In this document: positions 2,926 to 45,362 of the stretch, piece after piece
Layout of the letters: each line of letters starts with the position of its first letter
Numbering within the stretch: position 1 is the stretch's first letter
DNA from: a virus
Taxonomy: Duplodnaviria > Caudoviricetes
Length of the DNA: 64,000 nt
IMG/VR virus record: IMGVR_UViG_3300022555_000045
Location: 1 to 64,000 of that record
Strand: one strand, 5' to 3'
Position numbers and translations under genes: made by a program
The notes under the pieces: generated by a model
The model's input: the letters and a program-made list of their open reading frames with translations, nothing else
Database searches by the model: none
What the model was told of the DNA's origin: nothing

Positions 2926-2934
2926 GTACGAGAA

Positions 2935-2965
2935 AAGGGAGAGGGTTTAAATAACCCTCTCCCTT
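2935..2965. terminator. bidirectional hairpin between convergent genes
   Basis: AAGGGAGAGGGTT / AACCCTCTCCCTT, 13 bp. Confidence 0.7.
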
Positions 2966-2970
2966 AACTA

Positions 2971-3468
2971 TTAGTGCAAAGAGTTTGCTTCCCGTTCGCG
3001 GAACTTCCAGTAGGAAGTGTTAGAGTCGTCTTTAAGCTCCGGCTCTTCTTCCTTAACAGGCTCAGCTTTCTTAACCGCACGGTTCTGTGCAGCATGATCC
3101 TTAGTTAAACGAATCATCTTCTCAGTCTCGTGACCTAGATGACGTTCCATTAACCCTTTATTCTGTTGCTCTAGTTGAGCACGCTTTACTTCTCGCGCTT
3201 TATCAGAGACTTCGCGCTCTTCATCGGCACGTTGTTTGTCAGTCTTAAACTTGGGGTCCATAATATTAGGACCCCCGAACATAGGGCCTAGCACCGGAAG
3301 GTTTTCTTCTTCCTCTTCGTGCTTAGGCTTTTTAGAGAATAGGTGGGCTAACGGATGCTTTTTGGGCTTAGCGTGTCCGTGAGCATGGTGGTGACCAAGA
3401 CCGAACAAAGCGTTAACTTCGTTACGGTGTTCTAAGTAGTAGTTTATCCGCATAGCAGCATTAGACAT
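2971..3468 (-). CDS. hypothetical His/Lys/Glu-rich protein, probable internal virion protein
   Basis: N-terminus MSNAAMRINYYL resembles MATNSALRINTYF of 40086..40949; LFGL plus His-rich segment resembles 24044..25159; preceded by the late-type motif. Confidence 0.65.
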   Translation of the reverse strand: MSNAAMRINYYLEHRNEVNALFGLGHHHAHGHAKPKKHPLAHLFSKKPKHEEEEENLPVLGPMFGGPNIMDPKFKTDKQRADEEREVSDKAREVKRAQLEQQNKGLMERHLGHETEKMIRLTKDHAAQNRAVKKAEPVKEEEPELKDDSNTSYWKFREREANSLH

Positions 3469-3501
3469 TTTAAGTTTTTCCTTTTAGCTAGAAAATTTCT
3501 C

Positions 3502-13071: not shown

Positions 13072-13083
13072 AATCTTAATTTT
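13072..13083 (+). promoter_or_regulatory. AATCTTAATTTT motif upstream of terminase
   Basis: About 30 nt before the ATG at 13115. Confidence 0.55.
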
Positions 13084-19335: not shown

Positions 19336-22300
19336 ATGATGCTTAAGGGTCTTGGACAGTATCAAGTTACTTCAACCAATAATGGAGTTAAGATGACCCC
19401 ACGTGGAGGCTTAACTACCTCTGAACGTGGACTAGGTTCATCTATGTCCATGACCCGTAGGGAAGTTACTGCTGCAGCAACTGGGACAAGTAACTGTGGG
19501 CCAGGAGCTTCTGGTGGGGGTGGGGGGTTTGGAATTTCTGGTGGGGGTGTTAACGCCAATTATATTCGTTCCGTAGTTGAGGATTTTATTCCTCTTGGAA
19601 ATGCTGACGCTTACCGCCGAATCTACCGCGATATTTATTACCATCAACCGACTGCTGGGTCTGCTGTTGATCTGCTATCAACACTACCTTGGTCAGATTT
19701 CGTTTTAACAGGACTTCCGTCCGCTGATCTTCTTAAGCAATATGCAAAGTCCATTGAAAACCTTAAGATCAAAACTCTTCTCCCTGAGATGAGCATTGAT
19801 TATCTGGTAATGGGCACTTTTATTGGTGTACTCAATTTTGATGCTGCTAGTAAAGTTTTCGTCTCTATTGCACCACAAGATGTTGAATATTGTACTATTA
19901 ACCCGGTAGGTGTGTACGGTGAGGACCCTATCATTGACCTTCGTCTACCTCCTGAGCTAATGGAAATGCTTGACAAGTCTAAAAAGGACCCTCGTTACGA
20001 TTCTGTTAAAGCTAAGCTTCCAGGGTTCCTAATTAACAATGTTAAGAAAAACGGAGTTATTAAGCTAAACCCGTCTAACGTTCTTTATTTACCTCGTAGG
20101 ACTTTTTCCACGAGCACAGTAGGTGTGTCTTGTTATCGGCGTTTGGTCGGTCTTTATCTGTTGGAAAAGGCGCTTATGCGCGGATCGATAGAAGCAAGCT
20201 ATCGTCGGCAACGAGGTATCCTGCACATTGAAGTCGGTGATAGTTTTGATTGGCAGCCTACTCGTGAAGAGCTAAGCACTGTTACTCAGATGGTAATTAA
20301 CGCAGATCTAGATCCAACAGGTGCGGTTATTGCAACTCGCTCTGGGGTCCAGTTCAATGAAGTACGTTGTTTAGGCGGTAACACTTATGTGCATACCGAA
20401 AACGGGTTGATAAAGATTAAAGACTTAGTACCACACAACCCCAAGAAGATGATCGAAGGCACTATGTTACCTTTAGACCTTCAAGTTAAAGGTATGACTG
20501 GTAACTTCGTTTTAGCGACTCATTGGCACTACCAAGGCGTCAAACCTGTTAATAACTACTATACTGATTCCAATATAAAATTGACTTGTACCGAGGAGCA
20601 TAAGTTTTTAACTGTAGGAGAGTACGGTCAACTTGAATCTGCCAAGATAAAGGATATTGTTAAAGATAATCGTTGGCTATGTATTGATAAGGCGGGGTTA
20701 GACTACAATGAGGTTGGAAAAGACTTGGAACTGAACTTACGTTTTCCAGATATTAAAGCTAGGTTTTTGACTAGAACTAACACTGATATAACTTTACCAA
20801 AGCGTATGACTCCGCAACTGGCCTATATAATTGGAATTCTCATCAGTGAAGGTTACATTAACAAGCGCGGAGCGTATGTCAATAATACAGACTTAGAGCT
20901 AATTGCTGCTTACAGTGAAGCTATTTTAGATACTTTTGGTATGGAAACTAAAATAGGCGAGGGTTCTCCTATAGGAGAAGAAGTTGTAATATTAGGTAGA
21001 CAGCAGACGCGTAAAAAGAAAATCTATCAATGTCGCTTGCATGGTGTTATAGTAGTAGATATTCTAAAACAGTTAGGATTGGTTAACACCGCTGAAGTTA
21101 ACAATCGTGAGAAGTCTCCTTCTTACTATAAGAAGGTTCCTTGGAGTATAATGCAAGCAGACCGTGAATGCAAGATAGCCTTTTTAGCAGCTTACATAGA
21201 AGGTGACGGTTGTATTGGAAAGTCTCCAAACAAGACAAGTGGGACTAAAACGGTCGATATTCGCATAGCTAGTAGGTCGGTGTATACGCTAAATTCAATA
21301 AAAATATTGTTACAAAGTCTTGGGTTTTTATCTAATACCTGTTACGAACCTAGGTATGAGCTAAAATTAACAAGAGCTGAAGGTTCTAGGTTGTATAACT
21401 TAATGTATAAGTATTTGGTACTTCCTTATAAGAAACACCATGTTAAATGTGATGATGTTTCTATGGTAAGGTACGGAATACCAGCTAGCGTATTCGTTTC
21501 GGTGTTAAAAGAGCGTAAAATAAAGAGTGCTATAGGTGGGGTGTGGTTTAAAAACGACGAAGGCTCCTCTGTCTTTGTAGAAGGCCCTGTTGGTAATATT
21601 TTTAAACACTACACTGCTGTAAAAGAAGCTATATGCTTACGCTATGAGCGGTTAGACACGGGTGACTATACTAAAGAATTATCTATTATTAGGCAGGTTA
21701 GTCCAAAACTCTACTTCAATATACTAAAGCTTGCCTCTCTCAAATACAAGTTTGAGAAGGTTGTTAAAGTAACTAAAGCCAAAGATCAACCAACTTATGA
21801 TCTTACAATAAATTCTGACTCTGCTCCACTATTTCTTATTGCTGGTGGCGTAGTAACTCATAACTCCGGCTCGGATTTCTGGAAAATCAGCGATATGAAC
21901 GAGTTTTTAAATAGTTCATATTTGCGAGCATTAGGGTTAAGCGAGTCTTTACTCTCTGCGGAATCCTCCATTTCGACCTCTGAAGCTTCCATAAGTTCGT
22001 TCCTTGAGAGCCAAAGGGCGTACCGCGATTTGGTAGTACGTAAAGTCTTCACTAACCGGATATTCCCAGCTATTGCCGTATCGAACTCATTCCTACGTAC
22101 TAAAGCGGAAGAACGTAAGGAAGTAGCAGGATCATTAAATCATAATCCAGTAATGATTGACGGTAGGTACCGTGAAGTACTGGCCTCAAACGGTGAGAAG
22201 TCCTACGAGGTAACGTGCGACGGTGAGATTAAATCTTATCAAAATGAAGACTTGACTCAGTATTATATGCCGCGTATACAATGGCATAAACACCTTAAGC

Positions 22301-22797
22301 CTGAAGGTGACCGTGATTATCTGGACATGTTGAACGGCTTAGAGGATAAAGGTCTACCTATCCCACTTCGTATGTTAGCCGCTGCTGGTGGTGTGTCGTT
22401 AACAGAAGTAATGACTTCACTAGACGAAGATGTGAGGATACGCCAGCAAGTTGACAAGTATTTCAAAGCTCGGCCTAAAACCCCCAAAGAACAAGCCGAC
22501 GCGGCACAAGCAGGTGGTTCCGGTGGTGGTATGGGTGGTGGGTTAGGTGCTCTAGCCTCACTAGTTGAGCCCCCAGGGAACTTCAAGAAGAACCGTAACT
22601 TCGAATCAATTGAGATGCGTGACCCTGACACTGGTAAAGTCCTCAGTAAAAAAGGCCGCAAAGTTCAAGAAGAGAAGTTAATCAAAAAGGCAGCTCTAGT
22701 CCTATCTAACGTAGCTCGTAAAGAGAACCACAAGATTAAAACTGACGAAACTATCAAACCTGTCGGTGAAGGTGTCTACGGCGTTAGCGAGTCTTAG
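19336..22797 (+). CDS. portal protein, intein-containing
   Basis: About 650-aa extein with helical portal-like segments (YRRIYRDIY...SAVDLLSTLP; LRALGLSESLL), located between terL and the head genes. Confidence 0.75.
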   Translation: MMLKGLGQYQVTSTNNGVKMTPRGGLTTSERGLGSSMSMTRREVTAAATGTSNCGPGASGGGGGFGISGGGVNANYIRSVVEDFIPLGNADAYRRIYRDIYYHQPTAGSAVDLLSTLPWSDFVLTGLPSADLLKQYAKSIENLKIKTLLPEMSIDYLVMGTFIGVLNFDAASKVFVSIAPQDVEYCTINPVGVYGEDPIIDLRLPPELMEMLDKSKKDPRYDSVKAKLPGFLINNVKKNGVIKLNPSNVLYLPRRTFSTSTVGVSCYRRLVGLYLLEKALMRGSIEASYRRQRGILHIEVGDSFDWQPTREELSTVTQMVINADLDPTGAVIATRSGVQFNEVRCLGGNTYVHTENGLIKIKDLVPHNPKKMIEGTMLPLDLQVKGMTGNFVLATHWHYQGVKPVNNYYTDSNIKLTCTEEHKFLTVGEYGQLESAKIKDIVKDNRWLCIDKAGLDYNEVGKDLELNLRFPDIKARFLTRTNTDITLPKRMTPQLAYIIGILISEGYINKRGAYVNNTDLELIAAYSEAILDTFGMETKIGEGSPIGEEVVILGRQQTRKKKIYQCRLHGVIVVDILKQLGLVNTAEVNNREKSPSYYKKVPWSIMQADRECKIAFLAAYIEGDGCIGKSPNKTSGTKTVDIRIASRSVYTLNSIKILLQSLGFLSNTCYEPRYELKLTRAEGSRLYNLMYKYLVLPYKKHHVKCDDVSMVRYGIPASVFVSVLKERKIKSAIGGVWFKNDEGSSVFVEGPVGNIFKHYTAVKEAICLRYERLDTGDYTKELSIIRQVSPKLYFNILKLASLKYKFEKVVKVTKAKDQPTYDLTINSDSAPLFLIAGGVVTHNSGSDFWKISDMNEFLNSSYLRALGLSESLLSAESSISTSEASISSFLESQRAYRDLVVRKVFTNRIFPAIAVSNSFLRTKAEERKEVAGSLNHNPVMIDGRYREVLASNGEKSYEVTCDGEIKSYQNEDLTQYYMPRIQWHKHLKPEGDRDYLDMLNGLEDKGLPIPLRMLAAAGGVSLTEVMTSLDEDVRIRQQVDKYFKARPKTPKEQADAAQAGGSGGGMGGGLGALASLVEPPGNFKKNRNFESIEMRDPDTGKVLSKKGRKVQEEKLIKKAALVLSNVARKENHKIKTDETIKPVGEGVYGVSES
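20368..21864 (+). mobile_element. 499-aa intein with LAGLIDADG endonuclease in the portal
   Basis: Starts CLGGNTYVHT, ends GVVTHN followed by +1 Ser; IIGILISEG and FLAAYIEGDG blocks. Confidence 0.93.
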
Positions 22798-27984: not shown

Positions 27985-28749
27985 ATGTTTGAAGTTCTTG
28001 GCGATTGTATGTCAGTGTCTAATAATCATGTTATTGAAGGATATTCGTTAGAAGAACAAAAACACCGTGTAGTAGCAGCTTACGATTCGCCCAAGGCGAT
28101 TAGTGATATGCGTAACGTGCTTGACATGTCAACTTCTTGGTTAGAGCCAGTTTCTGAGAAGTATAAGATCAGTTCTAACATTAAGGATTACATTTTCGTA
28201 CCAGTGGTGATATTCTCAACTAATTTACCTAACCGTAACGGTGTAGGTTTTCCAGTTGAACCTTTATTAGAGTTTAATCCTGAGACTGGTTGTTTAGGTT
28301 ACGAATCATGGAAGCGTAAGTGTCTCCACGTGGAACATGATAATAAAGATATCACTAAGTCTAAAGGTACAATTTTTGATTCTCGTATTTTCCCTATGCG
28401 TAACGCTAAAGGAAATCTGTTCAAAGTTGTACTTCTCACGGGCTGGGACCGTAGTAAAGACCCAGTTTTGGCAAACCAGATACTATCTGGAGAGCGAACA
28501 AATTACTCAATGGGTTCTTGGTCTAGTGATTTTACCTGTTCAGTTTGTGGTAGTGCTTTTTCCAAGAACCAAAACGGGTGTGGTCACCTTTTCGTGTTAG
28601 GAAAAGAACCTCCCAAAATGCAAGAAGTTAACGGGCAGTTGGCTTTTTGGAAAGTTACATCAGTTCTCGGCTTCGAATGCTCTAGCGTCCGCGTTGGTGC
28701 CTATAGCTTGTTCAGTGAGACCCCAACTGACCGAATCTTCCAATATTGA
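27985..28749 (+). CDS. prohead (capsid maturation) protease
   Basis: PNRNG, LHVEH, YSMG and CSVCG motifs; sits upstream of scaffold and capsid genes. Confidence 0.7.
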   Translation: MFEVLGDCMSVSNNHVIEGYSLEEQKHRVVAAYDSPKAISDMRNVLDMSTSWLEPVSEKYKISSNIKDYIFVPVVIFSTNLPNRNGVGFPVEPLLEFNPETGCLGYESWKRKCLHVEHDNKDITKSKGTIFDSRIFPMRNAKGNLFKVVLLTGWDRSKDPVLANQILSGERTNYSMGSWSSDFTCSVCGSAFSKNQNGCGHLFVLGKEPPKMQEVNGQLAFWKVTSVLGFECSSVRVGAYSLFSETPTDRIFQY

Positions 28750-28798: not shown

Positions 28799-30163
28799 AT
28801 GCCAGTCTACGCTAATCATGCCAAGGAACTACTTTTTCTTAAAGCTAGGAAAGAAGGTAGGATAATTGTTAACAGGGACGGTACCGTCGATACGCCAGAT
28901 AAAAAGAATATAGGGCGTAAAGACAAAGACGGTTACGTTGTAATAACTTTAACAATTAACGGAGCTACTAAGAACATACGGCGCGGTCGTCTAGTTTATT
29001 TAGTCTATATTGACAAAAACCTTGATCCTGTTTTGCAAATTAACCATAAGAACGGGATCAAGGATGATGATTGTGTAGAAAACATTGAGTCTATGACTGC
29101 TAGAGATAATATCTTACACGCTCATAGGACAGGTTTAGCCGACAATCGTCGTGCTCATGATGTAACCGACGATGCTACAGCTGCTAAGATTAGGAAAGTT
29201 TACTCTTACGGTTTTGACACATACGAGTCGGTTGGTAAGAAGTTTGGTGTGTCCGCAGGAGTAGTTGGACCTATAATTAAAAATGAACACTATATTGATC
29301 CTAACTACGATCCCTCTATTACCGCTGATATACGTAGTGGACGCTCCTTTGTTGACGAACAAGAGATGTACGATATGTACATTTCTGGTAATTTCACCCA
29401 CGCCGAGATAGGCAAGAAGTTTGGTGTTAGCACCAGAATAACACAGCGTGTAATTAACGCTTTTAACGCTGCTAAAGAGTCTTTTAACACTTCATTTAAA
29501 CCTAACGACTTAGCTACGTGTAAGCATAATCGTAAGTTCACTGATGATGAGGTTCGTTACATTTTTAAACTTATAAATACTAATAGGTATACCGATAAAG
29601 AAATTGGTGCTATGGTAGGCGTGTCTCGTCAAACCATTGGTGACTTACGTCTACGCAATACGTATAAATACGTTGATCTGTCTATTGAACCTCCTCGTAC
29701 TATCGACTTGGTTAACCTAAAAAAGAAAATGTCAGCTACTAATATTGACAGGGATAAAGACGATCCCTTACCTGCGTGCCGAAAGTTCACTGACGACGAG
29801 ATATACGATATTCTTGATCTGTACGCTACTGGTAAGTATGCCCATAGGAAAATTGGTGCTCTATACGGAGTGTCGTGCCCTACTATCGGTGCTATACTTC
29901 GTGGACAGTCTTACGCGCACCTCGTTTCTAACTATGTGCCAGGTTCTAGAAAGACTACTAATTCAAAACTACCGGAAGTTTTAGCACTGTTTTCTATGCC
30001 TATTAAGCAAACTACCCCTGTTAAATCTGTAACGAAAACTGCAAACGTCACTAAAATCGAGTCCAAGAGTAATAGGCAAGTTAAGCCTATTAAGACGGCT
30101 AAATCTGCCAAGTCAAGTAAAAATCCAGGAAAGGTTCTTAAACTCAAGAATCTTTTCGGTTAG
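28799..30163 (+). CDS. HNH homing endonuclease with four C-terminal HTH repeats
   Basis: INHKNGIKDDDCVENIESMTARDNILHA plus repeated RKFTDDE...IG..YGVS..TI units. Confidence 0.8.
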   Translation: MPVYANHAKELLFLKARKEGRIIVNRDGTVDTPDKKNIGRKDKDGYVVITLTINGATKNIRRGRLVYLVYIDKNLDPVLQINHKNGIKDDDCVENIESMTARDNILHAHRTGLADNRRAHDVTDDATAAKIRKVYSYGFDTYESVGKKFGVSAGVVGPIIKNEHYIDPNYDPSITADIRSGRSFVDEQEMYDMYISGNFTHAEIGKKFGVSTRITQRVINAFNAAKESFNTSFKPNDLATCKHNRKFTDDEVRYIFKLINTNRYTDKEIGAMVGVSRQTIGDLRLRNTYKYVDLSIEPPRTIDLVNLKKKMSATNIDRDKDDPLPACRKFTDDEIYDILDLYATGKYAHRKIGALYGVSCPTIGAILRGQSYAHLVSNYVPGSRKTTNSKLPEVLALFSMPIKQTTPVKSVTKTANVTKIESKSNRQVKPIKTAKSAKSSKNPGKVLKLKNLFG

Positions 30164-30201
30164 AAAATTTTAGCACTAATAACAGGAAAATTTTTTGGGT
30201 T

Positions 30202-30213
30202 AATCTTAATTTT
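30202..30213 (+). promoter_or_regulatory. AATCTTAATTTT motif
   Basis: Intergenic, upstream of the omegaRNA/IscB locus. Confidence 0.5.
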
Positions 30214-30363
30214 GAGTAATCCAGTTTTCTAAAAGTTATTTCGTGTTTTAAGATTTTCTAAAACCCTACGTAAATTCTACCACTAAGTTGTCCTAGTTAC
30301 CCTACTAAACACAGCACAATAACCCACTCTCATCAAGATGATTTATAATCAAAAATTGGAATC

Positions 30364-30374
30364 ATCTTAATTTT
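30364..30374 (+). promoter_or_regulatory. ATCTTAATTTT motif just upstream of the omegaRNA
   Basis: 27 nt before the predicted scaffold start. Confidence 0.5.
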
Positions 30375-30401
30375 GATAATAGAGTTCCTAAGGAGTCTTT
30401 A

Positions 30402-30660
30402 GGATCCTCCGACTCCACCCGATAGGTTAGTAAGTCCTTTCCTTGAGGTATGAGGGGATCAGACCACGTGAATGAAAGATTCCGTAGACGATACTGAAGA
30501 ATATATAGGCACCGTAGGTTGTCGCCTCAGACCTACGCTCTGCGGTTGGGGACTAAACAGTCGTATAAGGTGTTAAGGACAGTGAACCCAGCTCAAAACC
30601 TTCGGATATCAGGTCGAGAGGAAGACCAAAACCAAGGACAACTTGGCGGAGGCACAACAG
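30402..30660 (+). ncRNA. IscB-associated omegaRNA scaffold (boundaries approximate)
   Basis: 5' stem GATCC...GGATCAGACC, then TATAGGCACCGTAGG...CCTACGCTCTGCGG...TAAACAG...CAGTG...AAACCTT..., the block order I recall for IscB omegaRNAs; directly upstream of iscB. Confidence 0.75.
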
Positions 30661-30726
30661 TTGACACACTGCTAGGCTTCGTTTCTTGTAGCCTATACAA
30701 AGTGTCGCCCTAAGAAAGTTATTACC

Positions 30727-32025
30727 ATGGCTGAAGTCAAAGAATCTAAACCAAAGAAACCACCTGTTATCGTTTTCGTGTTAAATGTGAACGGTAAACC
30801 TCTGATGCCTTGCAAATCCCAAACTGCTAGACATCTCCTGAAAGACGGTAAAGCTAAAGTTGTTTCCAAGTTACCTTTCACTATCAAACTGCTACAACCT
30901 ACCACTAACTATACCCAGCCTATCTCTGCTGCTTTGATAGTAAATTCTACTGCGGTTAAGACCGCAGCAGTTAGAATCGATTCTGAAGAGTCTACTCCGA
31001 TTCCTCTCTATGTTTCTGTAACTGTTCTCCGTAATGACATTTCTGGTAAACTAGAGCAACGAGGTAACTATCGTAGAACGCGGCGCTCTAGGAAGACACG
31101 TTATCGCGAACAACGGTCTAACAACCGAGCTAATTCCTGTAAGAATGGTAAGATACCGCCTTCCATTAGGTCTAAACTAGAATCTATTGAGCGTATAAAG
31201 AAGAAGATTAACCGTCTACTTCCTAACGTTCAGTGGAAAGAGCAGCTTTCCTCCTTCTCCAAGAAACGGTTAGAGAACCCTAAGTCTAAAAACTGGAAGA
31301 CCGCTAACGATAATAATTCTGACTGGCTTAACATTAAAGGTGCAGTGTTAGCTAGAGACAGTTACCGTTGTCAGATGGTAAAAGGCGGCAAGCATTCTCA
31401 CGAGCTTCACGTTCACCACAAGATTCCTAGGTCAGACGGCGGTACTAATGAGTTAGATAACCTTATTACTGCTTGTAAGGATCACCACGTAGCCTATCAT
31501 AAAGGTAAGTTGAAGTACAACGGTACTAGAGTTTCTACTAAACGTACGACCCATATGGATATAATACGGTCTCAGAGAATTAAGAAAGGTTGTAAACAAA
31601 CCTTCGGTTACCTTACCAAAAAGAAGAGGATTAAGTGGGAAGTAGAAGGTGCTGATCACGACGCCATCCTAGCTGCTTGTGGCTTGAAGAATCATAAGCC
31701 TGAACTGAACTATGTTACCTATCAGGAACGTCATGTTGCTCACGGGGATTATCAACAGACGTGGGGTAAACACTCAGAGAAGGTGTATCAAACAGGAAAA
31801 TTGTTTGACTTACGGAAGTTTGATCTAGTTAGAATAATGTATAAAGGCAATCTCTTAACTGGCTTTGTTAAAGGCAAGCGCGCTACAGGTTATTTTGATA
31901 TAATGGGAATAGACAATAAGACTATTCTTACTAAAGAGGGTAGAAAACTTAGCGGAGTTAATGTTAAAAAATACAGCGTTAGGTTACAAGCTAGGTCAAC
32001 TACTTTGATTCAACCATTAGCATAA
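30727..32025 (+). CDS. iscB: IscB (RRXRR/PLMP) RNA-guided nuclease; RuvC appears inactivated, HNH retained
   Basis: KPLMP, PFTIKL, Arg-rich bridge helix, HVHHKIPRSDGGTNELDNLITACKDHH. The RuvC-I position reads AALIVNS instead of LGIDxG. Confidence 0.9.
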   Translation: MAEVKESKPKKPPVIVFVLNVNGKPLMPCKSQTARHLLKDGKAKVVSKLPFTIKLLQPTTNYTQPISAALIVNSTAVKTAAVRIDSEESTPIPLYVSVTVLRNDISGKLEQRGNYRRTRRSRKTRYREQRSNNRANSCKNGKIPPSIRSKLESIERIKKKINRLLPNVQWKEQLSSFSKKRLENPKSKNWKTANDNNSDWLNIKGAVLARDSYRCQMVKGGKHSHELHVHHKIPRSDGGTNELDNLITACKDHHVAYHKGKLKYNGTRVSTKRTTHMDIIRSQRIKKGCKQTFGYLTKKKRIKWEVEGADHDAILAACGLKNHKPELNYVTYQERHVAHGDYQQTWGKHSEKVYQTGKLFDLRKFDLVRIMYKGNLLTGFVKGKRATGYFDIMGIDNKTILTKEGRKLSGVNVKKYSVRLQARSTTLIQPLA

Positions 32026-32081
32026 GAAAGGGTCGCTTTATTCTTCACTAAAAGTGTTGAAGTATATAGCGATAAACATTA

Positions 32082-34040
32082 ATGAAGTTTGAAACCACTG
32101 CTGCCATTCTGGCATCTGCTGACAGGCCGGTGCTAGCAGGGCATGACAAGGGGCAACTCCGTAGCGTTACGCTTGCCCTTTTACATTGCTCTGATTGTGA
32201 TACTAACATCCTTACAAACTACTCTCTACATGCAGGTTGTGTAGCTTGTGGAAGTACTTTAATTCCGTCAGAATCGATTGTCCAGAAAGATACCGCTGGC
32301 AATCCACTTACTGATAAAGACGGTGATACAGTAATTGCTACCATCGACGTTGATAAGTCGGCTTTAGCTAACTTAGAAATCGTCGCTACTTGCACAGAGT
32401 GTGATACTACTTTCCGTAGCGATGCAGTATTTGCGTCGTCCCTTTCTAACGAGCAGATTTATTGCCCAGTATGCTCTTCAGTTTTGGAGATCGCTGCTGA
32501 AGCTACTCCTGATGCCACCCCAGAAGCAGCACCTGCTGAAGAAGAGGCTCCCGCAGAACCTTTGAACGACAACGCAGGTGATGAACCTTCTACTGCTATG
32601 ACTGATGATGACGTTAAGGCTGACGGTCAGTTGATTACTTCTAACGCTAAGCACACTAAAGAGCATCACGATAAGCACAAGCCTGAACACAAGGCTGAAG
32701 AGCCAAGTGAAAAGAAGCCTGATCATAAAGCCGAGCACGAGGAAAAGAAGCCGGAACACAAGCCAGAAGATAAGAAGGTTGAAAAGACTGAAGAAGTTAA
32801 AGCAACCTCTGAAACCCCAGTTGTTGAAGACGAAGGTCTGAAAGACACTGGCGCTACTGGACCCAAGGTTGTTAAGATTACAGCCAACGAACTTCTTGAA
32901 GCCCCGAAGGCTGCCGAGCACAAGCACGATGAAAAGTGTGAAGGTAAAGGATGCAAAGACGTGACCGCTGCTGAAGATGCACCCAAAGCTGACGAGACTA
33001 AAGCAGAAGACACCAAGACTGACGCTAAAGGTGATGAAGGTTCTGAAGAGCATCACAAGAAGCACCACGACAAGCACAAAGAGCATGCTAAACACGAACA
33101 TAAAGAGCATGCTAAACACGAACATAAAGAGCATGCTAAACACGAGCACAAGAAGCACGCTGAAAAGACTGACGACGAGTCTGCGGAAGCCACTAAGAAG
33201 ACAGACGAAGCTCCCAAGGCTGAAGAGACCAAGGAAGTTAAGGCTATTCTTGAGGTTGACGCTTCGGTAATGTTGCTTGGTGGTAATGCTACTAGCTACA
33301 ACTTTGTTATGTCAAGTGCTGATAAACCCACTTGGTTCTTGTTTGCTGACAATCGTCCAGTTGCTTGGTCAGATAAGACTGCCGTATCTGCTAACTTAGC
33401 TAAGCATTATGACAGTCAAGCTTTTGGTAAAGCGTTTGCTGCCGCTGCTGCAGACGGTATTACTCCCGAGCTTATTAAGGAATTTGGTCTAGCTGCTTCA
33501 ACAATTCGGTTTGAAACCGACGAAGTTACCGCTTGTGCTATTAAGACTGCGGTAGAAGCTAAGACTAAAGAACTTAATGATCGGTTAGTACAGGTTAAGT
33601 CATCTTTTGAACAGGCTGTTGGTATTGCTGCCGTTGGTGTTAACAAGAACTTCTTTGCAGACGCTCCAAATACTCTGCGTAAGGCTCTTGTTAGTGTTCT
33701 TAGTAGCATTAACGTCAATCATCCTGAACACCTAGTTGATTCAGTACTTGCTCAGCACGGTCAGGATTATCTGAAGGCTATTATTGCTAAGGCAATGGAC
33801 CTACAGACTAAATCACCTGATATGCTTAATGAATACGCTAATTTAGTTGAGTCAGCACCGTACACTTCTGGCGTTGTTTCTACTCCGTCCAGTGCTGGTG
33901 AACGTCATGCTAACGAATTAGCCGCTGGTAGCATGCCTCTTTCAGTCTCTGCCTCTCTGATGGAAGACAAGCCCGTTGCTCCACAGGACAATATTCGTCG
34001 GTTGTTCAAGGACATTGGCCGTACCCCTCGTCGTATTTAA
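32082..34040 (+). CDS. probable capsid scaffold / major internal head protein
   Basis: Between protease and capsid genes; four N-terminal CxxC motifs, long E/K/H-rich low-complexity middle, helical C-terminus. Confidence 0.65.
   Translation: MKFETTAAILASADRPVLAGHDKGQLRSVTLALLHCSDCDTNILTNYSLHAGCVACGSTLIPSESIVQKDTAGNPLTDKDGDTVIATIDVDKSALANLEIVATCTECDTTFRSDAVFASSLSNEQIYCPVCSSVLEIAAEATPDATPEAAPAEEEAPAEPLNDNAGDEPSTAMTDDDVKADGQLITSNAKHTKEHHDKHKPEHKAEEPSEKKPDHKAEHEEKKPEHKPEDKKVEKTEEVKATSETPVVEDEGLKDTGATGPKVVKITANELLEAPKAAEHKHDEKCEGKGCKDVTAAEDAPKADETKAEDTKTDAKGDEGSEEHHKKHHDKHKEHAKHEHKEHAKHEHKEHAKHEHKKHAEKTDDESAEATKKTDEAPKAEETKEVKAILEVDASVMLLGGNATSYNFVMSSADKPTWFLFADNRPVAWSDKTAVSANLAKHYDSQAFGKAFAAAAADGITPELIKEFGLAASTIRFETDEVTACAIKTAVEAKTKELNDRLVQVKSSFEQAVGIAAVGVNKNFFADAPNTLRKALVSVLSSINVNHPEHLVDSVLAQHGQDYLKAIIAKAMDLQTKSPDMLNEYANLVESAPYTSGVVSTPSSAGERHANELAAGSMPLSVSASLMEDKPVAPQDNIRRLFKDIGRTPRRI
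33078..33149 (+). repeat. 3 x 24-nt in-frame tandem repeat (KEHAKHEH)
   Basis: AAAGAGCATGCTAAACACGAACAT twice plus one variant. Confidence 0.95.
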
Positions 34041-34125: not shown

Positions 34126-34830
34126 ATGTTTGATTTTGCACGTACTCGTATCGAAGCCAGCCGTGAGATCCCTACTTCTCCTCTTTATCAGATCACTTCT
34201 GAAGGCTTGGCCCTGGTTTCTGACCTGTACAATGGTCGTGGTGTAGTTCGTCCGTCATCTGGAACTAACGCCAACGAAATCTTTGCCGGTTTCTCACTGG
34301 CTCAGAACATTGCCGGTACCGCCGCCATTCAGGTTGAAGACCTGCTTGTTCCTGCTAACGCTCCTTACACTGTTGCTCTGCAGCAGTCGCCGGACGCCGC
34401 TGCTAACACTCTCGTCAAGACTTCAGGTACTGGGGTTCTTACCTACAACGTAGCCGTTGGCGCTGGTCAGTTCAATCTGGTCAACAACGTTGTTACTTTC
34501 AACGCCGCTCAGGCTGGTCAGTCAGTTAAGGTTGTTTATCGTTATAACCTTTCAGCCCTCGCTGCTGAAATGCTGTATGGCGATCAGCCGATTGGTAAGA
34601 CTGCCGCTTCTATTCTCAATTCAGTTTCTGTTATTACTAAGGGTGTTGTTTTCACTGACAATTACAACACTTCTGACGATTATTCTACTGCAGTTGATGG
34701 TTCAGTTCCGGTCATCGCTGGAGCCAACGGACAGATTCAGCTTGGTGGGACAGGCGCTCGGGTCACCGGTCGTATCGTTCACGTTCCTACTGCTGACGTT
34801 CCTTTCCTTGGCGTTTACATTAACGTCTAA
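34126..34830 (+). CDS. probable capsid decoration/stabilising protein
   Basis: Beta-rich 234 aa directly upstream of the MCP, strong AGGAG RBS. Confidence 0.6.
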   Translation: MFDFARTRIEASREIPTSPLYQITSEGLALVSDLYNGRGVVRPSSGTNANEIFAGFSLAQNIAGTAAIQVEDLLVPANAPYTVALQQSPDAAANTLVKTSGTGVLTYNVAVGAGQFNLVNNVVTFNAAQAGQSVKVVYRYNLSALAAEMLYGDQPIGKTAASILNSVSVITKGVVFTDNYNTSDDYSTAVDGSVPVIAGANGQIQLGGTGARVTGRIVHVPTADVPFLGVYINV

Positions 34831-34928: not shown

Positions 34929-36026
34929 ATGACCGGATTTAATCTATCTCTGCGTAGTCAGAAGGGGCGTAACGCTGCTGCCGTTCCTGGTGTTCATTTT
35001 AAGCGCCCTGGTTCTAAAGAACGTCTCGTCGGTGCTAACGGTGAAATCAACGCCTCCAGCCGTACAGACCTTATTGTTCAGCTTGCTGCTCTTATTGATT
35101 CTAATAACCAAGGCATGATTGATGAAGGTGCTGGTGAAGTAACAGCTTCTGCTAAAGAGCGGAACGAAGTTCTTTCAGCAGCTTTCGCTGATAAGTCTGG
35201 TAGCCGTTGGTCCGAGATCGGTGCTGGTATGGCCGGTACCCTTTCTGAAGCCGCCGACCGTGACGGTTTCATGCGTAAGATCCTTATTAAGGAAGAAGTC
35301 GCACAGGGTAACGTTCCCCGTATCCGCGTTCGTCGTAAGCGGGTCACTGCTATTATATCAGCCGGTAACGGTAGTATTTACCCGACCATCGCTCGTGACG
35401 ATTACTACTATCCGCCAGAATTCACCATTTCTGCTAACGTTCGCGTTGAAAAGCGTGAACTGAATCAGGGGTCAGGTGACATTCTTGCTGACAAGTACCA
35501 GGAAGCCGCTGAGCAGGTACTCAAGACTGAGGATTTACGCTTAAAAGAATTGCTTGATGCCACCGTTGGTATTGCTAACCCGCTCGTCGCACTTGTTGGT
35601 GGTTTGACTGTTAGTACTTTTACCCACATGCGCCAGCAGATTTCCGCTTATAATTTGCCAGTAAGCAAGTGCCTTTTTAGTAGCTCATATTGGAACGATT
35701 TGATCTCTTCTTCATCATTCGGTTCTTACTATGATCCAGTTACTAAGTATGAACTTCTTCAGACAGGTTACCTCGGTAACATTCTTGGCGTAGACTTGAT
35801 CAGCGATGCTTATAGGCACCCAAATCTTCGCGTTTTAGGCCAATCGGACTTCTACATGTTGGGCGACGGCGCGAATCTCGGGGCATATTGTGATCGAGGA
35901 CCGATTGAGTCAGTGGAGGTATCTGAGGCTACTTTGGGTTCCAATTCACGTGGTTTCTTCTTAAGTGAGGATCTGGCTATGTTACTATTTAATGCCAGGG
36001 CCGTTGTTCGTGCCGTTCGAGCCTAA
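34929..36026 (+). CDS. major capsid protein
   Basis: 365 aa with HK97-like features (GFMRKIL, YPPEF.I.AN..V, YELLQTGYLGNILGV) at the end of the protease-scaffold-decoration run. Confidence 0.8.
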   Translation: MTGFNLSLRSQKGRNAAAVPGVHFKRPGSKERLVGANGEINASSRTDLIVQLAALIDSNNQGMIDEGAGEVTASAKERNEVLSAAFADKSGSRWSEIGAGMAGTLSEAADRDGFMRKILIKEEVAQGNVPRIRVRRKRVTAIISAGNGSIYPTIARDDYYYPPEFTISANVRVEKRELNQGSGDILADKYQEAAEQVLKTEDLRLKELLDATVGIANPLVALVGGLTVSTFTHMRQQISAYNLPVSKCLFSSSYWNDLISSSSFGSYYDPVTKYELLQTGYLGNILGVDLISDAYRHPNLRVLGQSDFYMLGDGANLGAYCDRGPIESVEVSEATLGSNSRGFFLSEDLAMLLFNARAVVRAVRA

Positions 36027-36217: not shown

Positions 36218-37615
36218 GTGGCACGCGATTCCTCGGTTAAGAATTCTAAGTTCCCGTATAGCGACTCCTACTTAGCTAAGAATAATCTTACTAGAAACTC
36301 TTCTGGTTACTTAATAGACGCTTCTACTGGAAGAATAGCTAAGAAAACCACTAAACTATTTAAGTACGAACTGCATCAAAATTTTGGTAATGACTACCTC
36401 CTAAAGGGAGAATATTTAGGATCGAAAGTAGTTCATACGTTCACGCATTCTTGTGGCCTAGACTTTCAAGCTAAAGCTAACCTATTGTTATTAGGCCGTG
36501 CTAAGTGCCCGTGTAGCACACAATTACATGTACACACTTTCGAAACTCACTCTAAACAAATTTTAGAGCTTTGGGGTGGAAAATACCTTTTAAACATTTT
36601 TAATGGTGGAGATAAGTACACTAATAACTATAAGCATAACCCAGAAGTTGGTGGGTGTGGCGGTGACTTTGATGCTTATTTTGGTACAATGGCTTATAGA
36701 AAGGTGTGTCCTAAGTGTCCTTGTTGCGATACTATGATTGGGCGTACTGTAACTTGTGAAATAGCTAACGATCGCCTTAGCCAACAGACTAATGACTTCT
36801 ACTTTGTAGAAGAGTCTTACGTTAACATCCATACACCTTGTAAAATAATACATAAAGGGTGTAATAAACCTTTCGTTAGAAATCCTAGCGAGTTTTTAAG
36901 GTACAAACACAAGTTTTGTCCAGGTTGTCATGGAGAACACGGCACGGATAGGATGTTTCTTGAGGAAGACCTAGTCAGGCAACGAGTAAAAGACAAAGAC
37001 TCTGACTGGGATTTAGTATCTGGAACGTTTAATGGTATAAACAGGAACGCTACTTTTGTTCATAAGTGTGGCAATACTATAACTCGTCGTCCAGCAGGAT
37101 TTTTTAAGAATCCTGTATACTGTATAACTTGTGACGGGGGTAAAGGTCCAGGTGCTAAACACATCATGACCTATGAAGGTGTTGACTATTTATACCAAGG
37201 GTTTGAAGATCAAACCCGCTTGGAACTTTTCAAGAAATACAAACCGTCATCTATTATTTCTGGACATGAACTTGGAAAACGGTTAACTGTAAACTATATG
37301 TTTAAAGGTGAGACGTTAACTTACTTTCCTGACTTTCATGTTTGGCGTGCTAACCTTGTAGTAGAAAGTAAGTGCTTAGCTACATTAGGTATTGTAGATA
37401 AAAACCATTTGTTTGGTGGTCATGACTTGTATAGTAAAAATCAAGCTAAGGCTGCCGAAACATTAAGGTTAGGTTACAAGTACGAATTTCACCTCTATGA
37501 TGAAGTTAGTAGGTTACGTCTTTGGTCTCTACCTAACAATTGGTATAAATTACCAATTCTAGAGTTGGCAAAAATACTGGTACTAGATATCAACATGTCT
37601 ACTTACTTTAAGTGA
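36218..37615 (+). CDS. putative homing endonuclease: Zn-ribbon repeats plus C-terminal PD-(D/E)xK domain
   Basis: Repeated H.CG...CP.C units; YFPDF...LVVESK. Confidence 0.75.
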   Translation: MARDSSVKNSKFPYSDSYLAKNNLTRNSSGYLIDASTGRIAKKTTKLFKYELHQNFGNDYLLKGEYLGSKVVHTFTHSCGLDFQAKANLLLLGRAKCPCSTQLHVHTFETHSKQILELWGGKYLLNIFNGGDKYTNNYKHNPEVGGCGGDFDAYFGTMAYRKVCPKCPCCDTMIGRTVTCEIANDRLSQQTNDFYFVEESYVNIHTPCKIIHKGCNKPFVRNPSEFLRYKHKFCPGCHGEHGTDRMFLEEDLVRQRVKDKDSDWDLVSGTFNGINRNATFVHKCGNTITRRPAGFFKNPVYCITCDGGKGPGAKHIMTYEGVDYLYQGFEDQTRLELFKKYKPSSIISGHELGKRLTVNYMFKGETLTYFPDFHVWRANLVVESKCLATLGIVDKNHLFGGHDLYSKNQAKAAETLRLGYKYEFHLYDEVSRLRLWSLPNNWYKLPILELAKILVLDINMSTYFK

Positions 37616-38952: not shown

Positions 38953-39036
38953 GGACAGGATGGTAAGTGGGTGAAATCACGGGACTGTAAATCCCTCGCT
39001 TCGGCTATGAATGTTCAAATCATTCCCTGTCCACCA
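38953..39036 (+). tRNA. tRNA-Tyr (GTA)
   Basis: Acceptor GGACAGG/CCTGTCC, A73, encoded CCA, anticodon loop CTGTAAA, long variable arm, T-arm GAATG-TTCAAAT-CATTC. Confidence 0.93.
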
Positions 39037-42615: not shown

Positions 42616-42921
42616 ATGCTCGTATTAAAAAATATCTCTAAATTTTCGGTTGTAGTTCATTCAGCAGACGGAGATGCAATAATCATTCCACCGAAAGCAG
42701 CAGTTGCTACGGATGATAAATTTCTTTGGCAGCTTGATGACACCCAAGTTCGTATTGTAAAGCGTACAGACGACGGTACCCATCACCGAGTAGCTGTACC
42801 TAATCCTGTGTCTATTCCGTTACCCACTCCTGCACCAGTACTAGACAAGCTGAAAAACTCTCACGCTTCTCACACAGCTAATTCAGAGTTTAATTCTGCT
42901 AATCCTAAAGGTGTGCAGTAA
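42616..42921 (+). CDS. hypothetical protein
   Basis: 101 aa, AAGGA RBS. Confidence 0.7.
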   Translation: MLVLKNISKFSVVVHSADGDAIIIPPKAAVATDDKFLWQLDDTQVRIVKRTDDGTHHRVAVPNPVSIPLPTPAPVLDKLKNSHASHTANSEFNSANPKGVQ

Positions 42922-45050
42922 CTGTTTACAGGTGCTTCTCGGCGTAGGCTCTCAACATAGTCCATAGCTTTGTCAATTAGATCATTGTTATCTTTAAAGT
43001 GACCAATACTGTGGTTGCAGGATTGACATAGTAAACCACGAATCAAACCAGTCTCGTGACAGTGATCTACCACTAACCTTTCACTGTCACCACAGATTGC
43101 ACAGCACAGGTTGTCCTCAGTGAACGCTTCAATTAACCACTTTACTAGCATACGAGAGTGGTACACTGTAGTGTTAAACGGATAGCCTTGAATTGTATGT
43201 AATACTTCCCGGATTCCCAAACGTAGTAAATTCTTCTCTTTTAGGAAATTATTCGTTTGGTTGGCGAATAAAGAACGCGTAGCACCTTTCACCGGACGAT
43301 CTACTGTTAACCTATAAGCCACGTGGAATGGAGTAATCTCCAGCTTCTCGGCAATTTTGAAAATTAACTGGTCAGGACTTACATTTAATTTGTACTTGTC
43401 CCACAACCTGAGAATTGCAACTTTAGAACCACGCCAGTCTTCTGAGTCTACACGGTACTCTGTTAACTTAGGGGCAGGCGCTATATCAGCTAAGGCGTCA
43501 CGAGTAAAAGTCAAGTAATCAATTGCTCGTTGGAATTGTTCCCTATCTTCACCTAGTTTACCTAGACCAACATTGCAGTTGTTACAAATTAAACCTCTAA
43601 TTAGCCCGGTTTTGTGACAGTGGTCAATAGTTAAGTTAACCTCTGACCCAGACACCCCACACAGTTCACAACAATTACTAGCCGGGTCGTGAAGCTTACG
43701 GAACTTGTGTAAAGTGTAGATGAATTGAGAGTTTTTACTCTTGTCGTAAACCTGACCTTCCACTTTGGTTAAAAGCAACTTAACCATTTTTAGAATCTTA
43801 GGTGAGAAGTCTCGGTGTTTAACTATTAACGCTCCGACACGGTTACGATTGATTCCTAGCTTACGGGCAATGTACCTAGTGGACTTACCAGCGTCCCAGA
43901 AGTCTAAGATTTTCTTGTAGTCAGCCGGATTGGTACCGAACTGTTTTAACCTAGCTTCAATGTACGACTTACATTTACGAGGGTTGTACTGGACACCGTA
44001 CCGTTTCAGGGTAAAAATAATGGTCGATCCGTGAGTGTTGTACTTTTTAGCAATAGAGGGTATTGTGTAGTTTCCGGTTTTTAAGTCTTCAATCATTTGC
44101 CAAGCAGTTTCGTCATTGAAAGTGTAGTCAGTAGTTTGGCGTAAGGTAACCTTATGTTCTAGCAGCACACGACGTATATCCATGTAGAAGGTGTTAAACT
44201 TCCTAGCAACTTTGTCTATGTGTTCACCACTACGGTACAGTTTACAAATTTCTCTTTCTTGCTTGTTAGAGAAGTTCTTGGGTTCTAAGATTCTCATTGG
44301 GTTGGCAGTAGTCAGTCCTAATTTTGTACTGGATTTCCTATCCTCACCACGACGAACTTCTGTTAGGCAAGTAGGACAGATTAGTCCACGGATCAAACCT
44401 GTCGTGTGGGCATGATCAATGACTAAGTCATCAGTCTTTTTGTGGCAGAGGTAACAGGCACACTTGTTAGGAGCGTGAACTTCCTGATACTTGTGTAGGT
44501 CAGTAATGTACTCTCGGTTCTCTACATAGTCTAGCTCGGCTATTTTTAGTAGAGCATCGTTAACCATTACAGTTATACGGGGACACGGTTCACGTTTATC
44601 TACTATTAGTGCAGCCGTTCTCATTAACGGAGCTTTTACACTTTTCGCTATAGTGGTTACATTCTGACCTTTATCCCACATTTCTAAAGTAGGGTGTAGC
44701 GTAGTGTTACCTAAAGCTCTCACCTCACCTCTTGTACCGGCGTGACGGTGTTTGAACTCGTCTCTAGGAACATTGTGACGTTTCATAATTGAAATAAAAG
44801 TAGCGTACTCTATTCCGTACTTATTACATAAATCTGTTATATAGGCATTAGGCCCTAGGTTGTGATACTCTTCAATTAACTTCAACTCCTCGCCGTGTGA
44901 TAGTTTAAACGGTGACCTTTCTACAACGTCTATACCTTCATTGTGAAGAACTTCCCTAATGTAGTGTTGAGTAGTTCCGAAGTTCCTAGCAATGACTTGT
45001 AGGTACAGCTTCTCAACAGTGTAAGCATGAATTACTTCTAAAATGTCCAT
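42870..45050 (-). CDS. protein with three recombination-endonuclease-VII-like (HNH/Zn) domains and interspersed HTH repeats
   Basis: Three copies of C..C...L.(I/V)DH.H.TGLIRGL.C..C. Confidence 0.85.
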   Translation of the reverse strand: MDILEVIHAYTVEKLYLQVIARNFGTTQHYIREVLHNEGIDVVERSPFKLSHGEELKLIEEYHNLGPNAYITDLCNKYGIEYATFISIMKRHNVPRDEFKHRHAGTRGEVRALGNTTLHPTLEMWDKGQNVTTIAKSVKAPLMRTAALIVDKREPCPRITVMVNDALLKIAELDYVENREYITDLHKYQEVHAPNKCACYLCHKKTDDLVIDHAHTTGLIRGLICPTCLTEVRRGEDRKSSTKLGLTTANPMRILEPKNFSNKQEREICKLYRSGEHIDKVARKFNTFYMDIRRVLLEHKVTLRQTTDYTFNDETAWQMIEDLKTGNYTIPSIAKKYNTHGSTIIFTLKRYGVQYNPRKCKSYIEARLKQFGTNPADYKKILDFWDAGKSTRYIARKLGINRNRVGALIVKHRDFSPKILKMVKLLLTKVEGQVYDKSKNSQFIYTLHKFRKLHDPASNCCELCGVSGSEVNLTIDHCHKTGLIRGLICNNCNVGLGKLGEDREQFQRAIDYLTFTRDALADIAPAPKLTEYRVDSEDWRGSKVAILRLWDKYKLNVSPDQLIFKIAEKLEITPFHVAYRLTVDRPVKGATRSLFANQTNNFLKEKNLLRLGIREVLHTIQGYPFNTTVYHSRMLVKWLIEAFTEDNLCCAICGDSERLVVDHCHETGLIRGLLCQSCNHSIGHFKDNNDLIDKAMDYVESLRREAPVNSYCTPLGLAELNSELAV

Positions 45051-45362
45051 AGTAAAGACTCCTAAGTTTTAGTAGAACTACTAAATTCTAATCATAAGTA
45101 ATAGTAACACACTAAAGATTGAGAGTCAAGAAAAATCTTAAGAAAGTTTAAAATTCTTCAGATTCTATACCGTGCCGCTTGAGGGCAGTAAGTTCACATC
45201 ATAATACAATAAACATATTATTGATATTCTTAGTGATTTTGATCCGTTGATAACGATTTATGCTAAGAATACAGTGATTTGAGGATTTTAATATGAAAAT
45301 ACTATGTCGGTTTTATACGTAAAACAGCGTTTGACGCTCATTACATAGGAGTTGACCCCGCC

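Follow-up and report, generated by a model that had tools for sequence, protein, structure and literature searches.

The closest described systems are the canonical IS200/IS605 IscB-omegaRNA pairs, exemplified by OgeuIscB and by GstIscB of ISGst5. In these, a PLMP domain, a split RuvC domain with a bridge helix and an HNH insert, and a TAM-interacting domain (TID) follow one another in this order, the HEARO RNA lies about 320 nt upstream, and the guide is taken from the flank. Engineered IscBs in which the RuvC-I Asp is replaced by Ala are working nickases (PMC11666462, PMC9755519), and in D61A OgeuIscB/IscB.m16 and D59A HEARO MG35-1 the loss of this Asp results in HNH-only nicking of the target strand. 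A natural IscB with an inactive RuvC and an active HNH, a predicted nickase, was noted earlier (Altae-Tran 2023, PMC10910872); it belongs to a locus with an inactivated Cas12 and an HTH. IsrB is a natural one-strand OMEGA effector guided by an omegaRNA; RuvC is its sole nuclease domain, and the strand that it nicks is the non-target one. TldR is a transposon-derived RNA-guided protein devoid of RuvC catalysis and of any other nuclease, and its guides are aimed at promoters elsewhere.

The free-standing or nicking HNH homing endonucleases of phages include I-HmuI of SPO1 and the Seg and Mob enzymes of T4, and for some of them a single-strand nick suffices. Their genes are selfish and are situated between conserved phage genes; the enzymes make protein contacts to recognise DNA and target the allele that does not carry the gene, which is then converted (see also the review PMC13565253).

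The locus described here belongs to a jumbo phage. The window, that is, the whole stretch of DNA analysed, is 64,000 nt long and is part of a 74-kb contig of a genome that is about 33% complete. Homing-type nucleases are abundant throughout this genome. Judged from its sequence, the element at 30404-32081 is a non-autonomous IscB-omegaRNA, without TnpA, inserted between the Shine-Dalgarno (SD) leader and the ATGA start of a putative scaffold gene (Table 1). The preliminary description had placed an uninterrupted 432-aa IscB ORF in the capsid operon, with no tnpA adjacent to it, and all of this holds. The gene lies between that of the head maturation protease and the putative scaffold, virion protein and major head genes, it contains no stop or frameshift, and the Y1 transposase TnpA (PF01797) has no match in the whole 74-kb contig. 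More than 20 contigs, which come from several samples, carry the identical IscB protein, and it is therefore not an assembly error. The HNH homing-endonuclease-like gene upstream is a second insertion at the protease/scaffold junction; the relative L011 has no counterpart of it, and its protease gene abuts the scaffold gene.

Table 1. Features at the junction of the protease and scaffold genes (positions in the window)
Feature	Position	Strand	Remarks
Head maturation protease	27985..28749	+	phrog_18299, E 6.4e-59; left anchor of the junction
Free-standing HNH homing-endonuclease-like gene, 454 aa	28799..30163	+	phrog_59, E 3.4e-33
Candidate promoter-like motif ATCTTAATTTTGA	30364..30376	+	upstream of guide/leader; function inferred
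Predicted omegaRNA guide CTAAGGAGTCTTTAGG, displaced SD leader of the scaffold-like gene	30388..30403	+	directly 5' of HEARO position 1
omegaRNA scaffold core, Rfam HEARO RF02033	30404..30629	+	65.5 bits, E 2.7e-12; model positions 1-211 of 211
Probable omegaRNA 3' part and iscB 5' UTR	30630..30726	+	geometry as in canonical loci
iscB, 432 aa	30727..32025	+	PLMP, RuvC-I (dead), bridge helix, RuvC-II (dead), HNH (intact), RuvC-III (His lost), TAM-interacting domain
3' tail of the element, candidate transposon end	32026..32081	+	imperfect hairpin ~32032-32073; -14.3 kcal/mol, z = -2.24
ATGAA, start codon of the scaffold-like gene and candidate empty-site TAM	32082..32086	+	inferred
Putative scaffold gene, 652 aa	32082..34040	+	synteny with L011, L012 and L098; now without SD

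In the order of its domains, the position of HEARO and the origin of the guide, the phage locus resembles the canonical ones. It differs from them in its replaced RuvC catalytic residues, its decayed RuvC segments, the lack of TnpA and its place in a head operon, and no known protein is more than 47% identical to the phage one. With the IscB of Altae-Tran 2023 it shares a natural origin, a dead RuvC, an intact HNH and a predicted nickase activity; the phage gene stands alone in a structural operon, and the two are set apart by description. The engineered nickases are single point mutants, whereas about half of the conserved RuvC positions of the phage protein are changed. Like IsrB, the phage IscB is predicted to be a natural one-strand effector guided by an omegaRNA, but of the opposite kind, in which HNH only is left and the target strand would be nicked. 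With TldR it shares transposon descent, guidance by RNA and the absence of RuvC catalysis; in contrast to TldR, its HNH is intact and its guide is the local flank. The layout is compatible with that of phage homing endonucleases, although DNA would be recognised by an RNA guide and a TAM.

The ORF matches Pfam RRXRR (PF14239; E 1.1e-38, residues 16-191) and Pfam HNH (E 6.3e-9; 36.3 bits against a cutoff of 21.4). The HNH domain, whose absence defines IsrB, is thus present, and the protein is not an IsrB. Solved IscB structures are matched both by the sequence and by the predicted fold: the best structure matches of the AF2 model (pLDDT 75.9) are 8CSZ, 9K30 and 9LIQ, and its E values against IscB structures range from 1e-20 to 1e-14. 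The split RuvC with the HNH insertion is recognisable, and residues 15-429 align collinearly with the HMM. The terminal branch leading to the phage IscB is the longest in the tree (1.46, the median being 0.10), yet after about 1.5 substitutions per site all 432 codons are unbroken.

The RuvC catalytic set of the IscB class is D...E...H..D. In RuvC-I, the motif GMDTGS, whose Asp is present in 100% of 119 homologues, reads ALIVNS, and the Asp has become Ile71; the alignment is gapless and of high confidence here, and the motif contains no acidic residue. In RuvC-II, VE of the same homologues reads EQ and the Glu has become Gln173, a lesion that the preliminary description had not listed. It had listed the loss of the RuvC-I Asp and of the RuvC-III His, and both are evident. 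The RuvC-III motif K.H..DA reads GADHDA, with an HMM posterior of only about 0.6 there. Neither alignment register retains the His, and the Asp depends on the register, being Ala313 in that of MAFFT and the HMM or a retained Asp312 in that of the preliminary description. Many further residues of the RuvC pocket are replaced, often by hydrophobic ones.

The same description held that the HNH domain, PLMP and bridge helix had been preserved and that the loss of RuvC was selective, and the conserved positions agree with it on each point. H230, H231, N245, H254 and H258 of the HNH domain are all retained, and its zinc site (C215...H224...C250..H253) is the same as in OgeuIscB and a subfamily of intact homologues. 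In the RuvC-associated segments 32 of the 75 highly conserved columns are kept, compared with 88 of 101 (87%) in the PLMP, bridge helix, HNH and TAM-interacting parts (p = 4.3e-10); the latter include 18/19 columns of PLMP, 19/21 of the bridge helix and 36/41 of the TAM-interacting domain. Control RuvC-intact IscBs of similar divergence display no such contrast (55-68% vs 69-78%). The RNA-binding parts are the best-conserved segments of the protein. The L1 linker beside HNH, which is poorly modelled, has also decayed (2/10 conserved columns), and this might impair HNH docking. Since the loss of RuvC is selective and Asp-to-Ala IscBs nick DNA, a nickase or a binder is a reasonable prediction. 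From these residues, the phage IscB most likely nicks DNA rather than cutting both strands.

The omegaRNA had been thought apparently complete, and the match does extend over the entire HEARO model, though its 65.5 bits fall short of the Rfam gathering score (83) and of the range of 83-123 bits spanned by 17 canonical omegaRNAs from phages. About 54 of the 67 HEARO consensus pairs are standard, as read by hand off the Rfam alignment. Most helices are kept, and compensatory pairs occur in P1 and in the central stem. At the 17 canonical phage loci HEARO ends about 60 nt before the IscB ORF, and the geometry of the present locus agrees with this. The fold of the single omegaRNA sequence is not significant (z = -1.05), nor is that of 30630..30726 alone, and RNAalifold on a MAFFT alignment recovered the structure only in part.

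The predicted guide CTAAGGAGTCTTTAGG resembles an SD with the 8-nt spacer found in the same phage. In the relatives the scaffold genes are preceded by an SD and 7-8 nt, and the scaffold-like gene at 32082 has no SD. Copies of the ATCTTAATTTTGA motif are found at 13073, 18270, 30203, 30364 and 54315. At 13073 and 18270 an ATG follows 40-42 nt after the start of the motif, a spacing that predicts the pre-insertion ATG at position 30404 (30364+40). The ATCTTAATTTT motif was also considered as a terminator; an upstream hairpin is present at the 30364 copy only, and the motif is hence treated as promoter-like, a designation that is unproven. On the other side of the element, the likely TAM ATGAA is the reverse complement of TTCAT, the TAM of GstIscB (PMC10055086). 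Canonical phage IscBs have the same insertion layout: at 15 other phage loci the ATG of the next gene is 44-59 nt past the iscB stop, and, judged by eye, about three quarters of the 38 starts downstream of phage iscB genes are ATGA. The guide is the displaced leader, and the layout is therefore a selfish one, targeting the empty site, and not a reprogrammed one of the TldR type. With up to 2 mismatches allowed, the guide sequence occurs only once in the 74-kb contig, and no second TAM-flanked target was found there; a 12/13 repeat of it inside the HNH gene was judged to be due to chance. The empty-site allele, sought as the predicted junction and as the scaffold-gene start, was not found in viral or metagenome contigs.

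Among 50,697 phage records, megablast gave no match to the locus; no relative found by tblastn exceeded 32% identity. A word-indexed search and an HMMER scan of 1.84 billion representatives for orthologues with the same lesions gave nothing above 47% identity outside the protein's own cluster. The phage IscB is a singleton lineage, its nearest relative being 47% identical, and the four available copies are 99.9-100% identical in DNA, as in a clonal population; consequently, no dN/dS is computable. A RuvC-dead, HNH-intact IscB with an omegaRNA is not unique to this phage. Two other RuvC-lesioned IscBs, P0150 (locus L100) and P0166 (locus L101), also keep HNH and an omegaRNA. P0150, which is 39% identical to the phage IscB, has Ile at the RuvC-I Asp position too; as a sister lineage it was set aside, as they stand apart in the free tree, while the AU test does not reject their joining (p = 0.27). 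P0166 and P0293 sit on contigs that are too short to show their genomic surroundings. The recurrence of this combination suggests that RuvC-dead, HNH-intact, omegaRNA-bearing IscBs are an overlooked functional class rather than cases of isolated decay.

The reading that we prefer, with a probability of about 0.45, is that of a target-strand nickase used for homing or for the exclusion of competitors. The ribonucleoprotein would still recognise guide-matched DNA adjoining a TAM, probably ATGA(A), where HNH alone would act and nick the target strand. Its natural target would be the allele in which SD|ATG is uninterrupted, carried by related phages in a co-infection, and the phage's own copy would be spared because the omegaRNA scaffold stands where the TAM was. 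In replicating phage DNA, one nick may suffice either for recombinational copying or for handicapping a competitor. If so, RuvC could speculatively have decayed while the rest of the element stayed under selection. If the element has become fixed in its population, however, there may be no target left for homing.

Such a fixation would also be the starting point of a rather unlikely alternative, namely that the element is a relic without targets in which RuvC eroded first and both protein and RNA are inert. The singleton lineage with its very long branch, the failure to find the empty site in viral or metagenome collections, an omegaRNA score below those of canonical loci and the absence of TnpA from the contig are all in keeping with a relic. 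Against it, decay is confined to the RuvC-associated segments, with 87% of the conserved columns kept elsewhere, the reading frame has survived heavy substitution without a stop or frameshift, the omegaRNA stems are compensated, and the same pattern of decay is present in other lineages. A still active RuvC, which would make double-strand breaks with the neighbouring acids E172, D310 and D312, is very improbable. These acids are one position away from where the canonical Glu and Asp would be, and there is uncertainty in the RuvC-III register, but the place of the RuvC-I Asp is securely aligned to Ile in an acid-free motif, the equivalent single change of Asp to Ala abolishes RuvC cutting by IscB, and much of the remaining pocket has been replaced, often by hydrophobic residues.

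Two further explanations do without DNA cleavage or place it in the background. The preliminary description had drawn a parallel with domesticated TldR and considered regulation of late genes. A ribonucleoprotein that occupies DNA but leaves it uncut, and so represses a phage, host or competitor gene, would fit the dead RuvC and a guide that resembles RBS leaders; 13 of 16 guide positions match at 45051-45066, followed by ATG, where the minus-strand endonuclease VII-repeat gene has its RBS, and IscB binding tolerates mismatches (PMC10055086). Neither the parallel nor the regulatory role is borne out, and such a binder is unlikely: all HNH catalytic residues are kept, which a pure binder would not need, the guide is the flank at the insertion junction rather than a reprogrammed sequence, two mismatches of the near-match are TAM-proximal (in the seed), and no other target with up to 2 mismatches exists in the 74 kb. 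It is quite improbable that the element acts in cis through its RNA; IscB would then be kept because stability or scaffold translation requires the omegaRNA to be bound or processed within the long transcript. The scaffold ORF would indeed be cut off from its late promoter and RBS by the element, which stands between the promoter-like motif and a gene without an SD, and the RNA-binding parts are conserved best. A role of this kind leaves the HNH catalytic residues and the well-kept TAM-interacting domain unexplained, and no IscB precedent was found in the literature searched.

If the phage IscB nicks DNA as the target-strand reading proposes, IsrB would have a natural counterpart that works by HNH alone, this protein of 432 aa would offer a compact nickase scaffold of natural origin, and OMEGA nucleases could serve as phage homing elements that need to cut one strand only. 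A wider proposal is doubtful and is offered tentatively: HNH-only IscBs might be recurrent natural RNA-guided target-strand nickases which, in phages, are homing or exclusion elements between the SD and ATGA of essential late genes, borrow the promoter and leader of the gene as promoter and guide, and spread by the nick alone. The habit of inserting at SD|ATGA, seen here and in canonical phage IscBs, would supply such an element with a promoter, a guide and the distinction of self from non-self in a single step.

The 432-aa protein encoded between the head maturation protease and HNH genes on one side and the scaffold-like, virion and major head genes on the other is an IscB. It matches Pfam RRXRR (E 1.1e-38) and HNH (E 6.3e-9) as well as the sequences of solved IscBs, and its AlphaFold model (pLDDT 75.9) matches the IscB-omegaRNA structures 8CSZ, 9K30, 9LIQ, 7UTN and 7XHT (E 1e-20 to 1e-14). 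Its placement in the capsid operon and its reading frame, free of stops and frameshifts, are as given in the preliminary description. The source contig is 74 kb long and about 33% complete by estimate; the same IscB protein is found on a 254-kb contig, and the phage is therefore a jumbo phage. Selfish nucleases crowd its structural region, where a single tRNA gene (Rfam, 47.1 bits) also lies. Two other strains (L002, L004) are 99.9-100% identical to the window over 21 kb apart from one 24-bp indel, which falls in a repetitive His/Lys/Glu-rich stretch of the scaffold-like gene (652 aa versus 644 aa).

Features of the structural region around the iscB gene
Feature	Positions	Strand	Remark
Portal-sized gene	19336-22797		LAGLIDADG intein signal; selfish nuclease
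Head maturation protease	27985-28749	+	
Free-standing HNH endonuclease	28799-30163	+	selfish nuclease
21-nt direct repeat	30195-30215, 30356-30376		86% identical; 161 nt apart
12-bp hairpin	30332-30371		
Predicted guide region	30385-30403		
HEARO omegaRNA	30404-30629	+	
Putative IscB element	30404-32081		56-nt 3' tail with imperfect hairpin
IscB, 432-aa ORF	30727-32025	+	
Scaffold-position protein	32082-34040	+	652 aa, acidic and His-rich
Virion protein	34126-34830	+	
Major head protein	34929-36026	+	
Second free-standing HNH gene	36218-37615		selfish nuclease
tRNA gene	38953-39033		
Endonuclease VII-like gene	42870-45050	-	726 aa, three repeats; selfish nuclease
Leader of endonuclease VII-like gene	45051-45066	-	

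In an alignment to 119 homologues (mean mutual identity 69%; 43-49% identical to the query), 'GMDTGS' of RuvC-I reads 'ALIVNS', the Asp being replaced by Ile71; 'VE' of RuvC-II reads 'EQ', with Gln173 in place of Glu; and 'K.H..DA' of RuvC-III reads 'GADHDA'. A profile HMM from which the query was excluded left the RuvC-I and RuvC-II alignments unchanged, at top posterior. In RuvC-III the posterior falls to about 0.6, which leaves the last Asp either replaced by Ala313 or, in the register of the preliminary description, kept as Asp312; the His is gone in any register. The losses of the RuvC-I Asp and the RuvC-III His noticed earlier thus hold, as does the intact HNH, in which H230, H231, N245, H254 and H258 are all kept. 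The lesions are not assembly errors, since over 20 contigs, drawn from several samples, carry the identical protein. Polar pocket residues have often become hydrophobic (D71I, T72V, Q96V, E98V, H154I, E157I). Loss of two zinc cysteines was rejected as a lesion: C...KH...C..H also occurs in P0014, P0024, P0108 and other intact homologues, and OgeuIscB, like the query, has C..H at the second zinc pair.

The selectivity of the RuvC loss, also claimed at the outset, is borne out by the alignment columns with 90% or more conservation among the homologues. Of these the query keeps 18/19 in PLMP, 19/21 in the bridge helix, 15/20 in the HNH core and 36/41 in the TAM-interacting domain, against 5/14 in RuvC-I, 13/26 in RuvC-II, 2/10 in the L1 linker and 12/25 in RuvC-III. 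Taken together, 32/75 are kept in the RuvC-associated segments, L1 linker included, versus 88/101 elsewhere (Fisher p = 4.3e-10). No comparable contrast appears in the RuvC-intact IscBs used as controls (P0149, P0151, P0152, P0155-P0157), whose divergence is similar or higher and which keep 55-68% versus 69-78%. In a tree of 193 sequences the query has the longest of all terminal branches, at 1.46 substitutions per site (median 0.10), and its frame is nonetheless open. RuvC would thus have been long free of constraint and the remaining protein under purifying selection. The population is clonal and protein homologue searches found no close orthologue, which leaves no basis for dN/dS.

The omegaRNA matches the Rfam HEARO model along its full length (E 2.7e-12, 65.5 bits) and starts 323 nt before the ORF. 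Among canonical phage-borne IscB loci, HEARO was found in 17/20, with higher scores (83-123 bits) and a start about 290 nt before the ORF. The query RNA is thus diverged in sequence and, to judge from its predicted pairing, structurally intact, because the cmscan alignment shows standard pairing at about 54 of 67 consensus pairs, the invariant single-stranded motifs CAGA, ACGATA, GCTCTG, TAAACAG and GTCGAGAGGAAG are present, and the P1 and central stems are preserved through two-sided changes. Two flagged helices re-pair once a bulge is allowed. It appears as complete as had been described.

The insertion site can be proposed from the flanks. The 16-19 nt directly 5' of the omegaRNA scaffold, ending in CCTAAGGAGTCTTTAGG at 30403, resemble the usual ribosome-binding leader of the phage, an SD plus 8 nt, and the scaffold-like gene at 32082, an abundant product, is among the few genes of the phage without an SD (region checked, 32052-32084). 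In the related phages L098 and L012 the homologous gene is preceded by an SD, 7-8 nt and ATG. The recurring motif ATCTTAATTTTG has an ATG 40-42 nt downstream at 13073 and 18270; the same spacing counted from its copy at 30364 would put an ATG at 30404, exactly where the omegaRNA begins. From these observations the element would comprise 30404-32081 and would have gone in between leader and ATGAAG, apparently pushing the SD of the scaffold-like gene 1.7 kb upstream. The boundaries are inferred, since no empty-site allele was found in viral or metagenome collections. In the relative L011 the protease gene abuts the scaffold gene directly, without the HNH gene and IscB. L098 (major head protein 53% identical) carries two other genes at this point (2075-3474 of that locus), of 202 aa (gp49/endonuclease VII-like) and 264 aa, which makes the junction a hot spot of insertion. 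The 21-nt repeat between the HNH gene and the omegaRNA contains the ATCTTAATTTTGA motif, its second copy forming the 3' arm of the hairpin; possible origins are a promoter duplication and a scar left when the HNH gene inserted.

The canonical phage-borne relatives have purine-rich SD-like motifs 4-8 nt before the omegaRNA, and the ATG of the next gene, usually ATGA, follows the iscB stop at up to 6 nt in 12 loci and at 44-59 nt in 15. This suggests that insertion between SD and ATGA is a habit of the phage IscB family. IscB elements take as guide the flank adjoining the omegaRNA and have their TAM at the opposite flank (PMC10055086); by this rule, applied to the proposed insertion, the predicted guide is the displaced leader and the candidate TAM is ATGA(A), the reverse complement of the GstIscB TTCAT. 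With ATCCTC after it, the self copy of the guide sequence would be spared. The predicted guide region is nearly self-complementary (CCTAAGGAG/TCTTTAGG), and the small hairpin into which it folds would mask the SD. The minus-strand leader of the endonuclease VII-like gene, CTTAGGAGTCTTTACT followed by ATG, matches the guide at 13/16 positions, the two TAM-proximal bases being mismatched.

In Cas9 and IscB the guide-complementary strand is cut by HNH and the other strand by RuvC. IscBs with the RuvC-I Asp changed to Ala are efficient nickases (PMC11666462, PMC9755519). The most likely activity is guide- and TAM-dependent nicking, in which the RNP would nick the uninterrupted leader-ATGA allele of co-infecting relatives. 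Speculatively, the nick could become a break in replicating phage DNA and be repaired from the element-bearing genome. The outcome would be homing or marker exclusion, in analogy to SPO1-type phages, which have nicking HNH homing enzymes. PMC13565253 gives general background on phage homing enzymes.

One rival to nicking is neutral decay of the element, against which the confinement of the losses to RuvC and the open frame speak. Residual RuvC activity would have a retained Asp312 in its favor, and Ile71 against it. The parallel with TldR drawn in the preliminary description, a binder that does not cut, is in keeping with the RuvC lesions but loses weight through the intact HNH and through a guide that comes from the local flank. 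A cis role of the RNA in scaffold expression is a further rival, with the apparent displacement of the SD in its favor and the intact HNH against it.

Virus-borne IscB/HEARO was already known, PMC9755519 having classed over 16% of its fragments as viral or prophage-derived, and a Cas12-linked locus had been described with a RuvC-inactive, HNH-active IscB, a predicted nickase (PMC10910872); the query is likewise RuvC-dead and HNH-intact by sequence. D..E..H..D is kept in 78/80 phage-borne IscBs, a sample biased to intact forms, as one of two scan patterns demanded an intact RuvC-I motif. Single changes occur in the otherwise canonical L016:2899-4275 (RuvC-II Glu to Gln) and L051:3001-4260 (RuvC-III His to Asn). 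Among 115 representatives of 50%-identity clusters, P0150, P0166/P0293 and P0277 are RuvC-lesioned, HNH-intact lineages, with domain-specific decay also in P0150 (p = 5e-7), P0166 (p = 1.5e-9) and P0293 (p = 1.5e-5). P0150 (L100:1-1534) has Asp to Ile, Glu to Val, His to Pro and Asp to Asn, an intact HNH and a HEARO of 78.9 bits, 5'-truncated by the contig end; a 54-aa remnant just downstream resembles the N-terminus of IS200-type TnpA. P0166 (L101:406-1850) has Asp to Lys, the His lost, an intact HNH and a HEARO of 83.8 bits. As far as the literature searched shows, the present case is the first worked-out HNH-only IscB in a phage structural operon with an inferred insertion site and guide logic.
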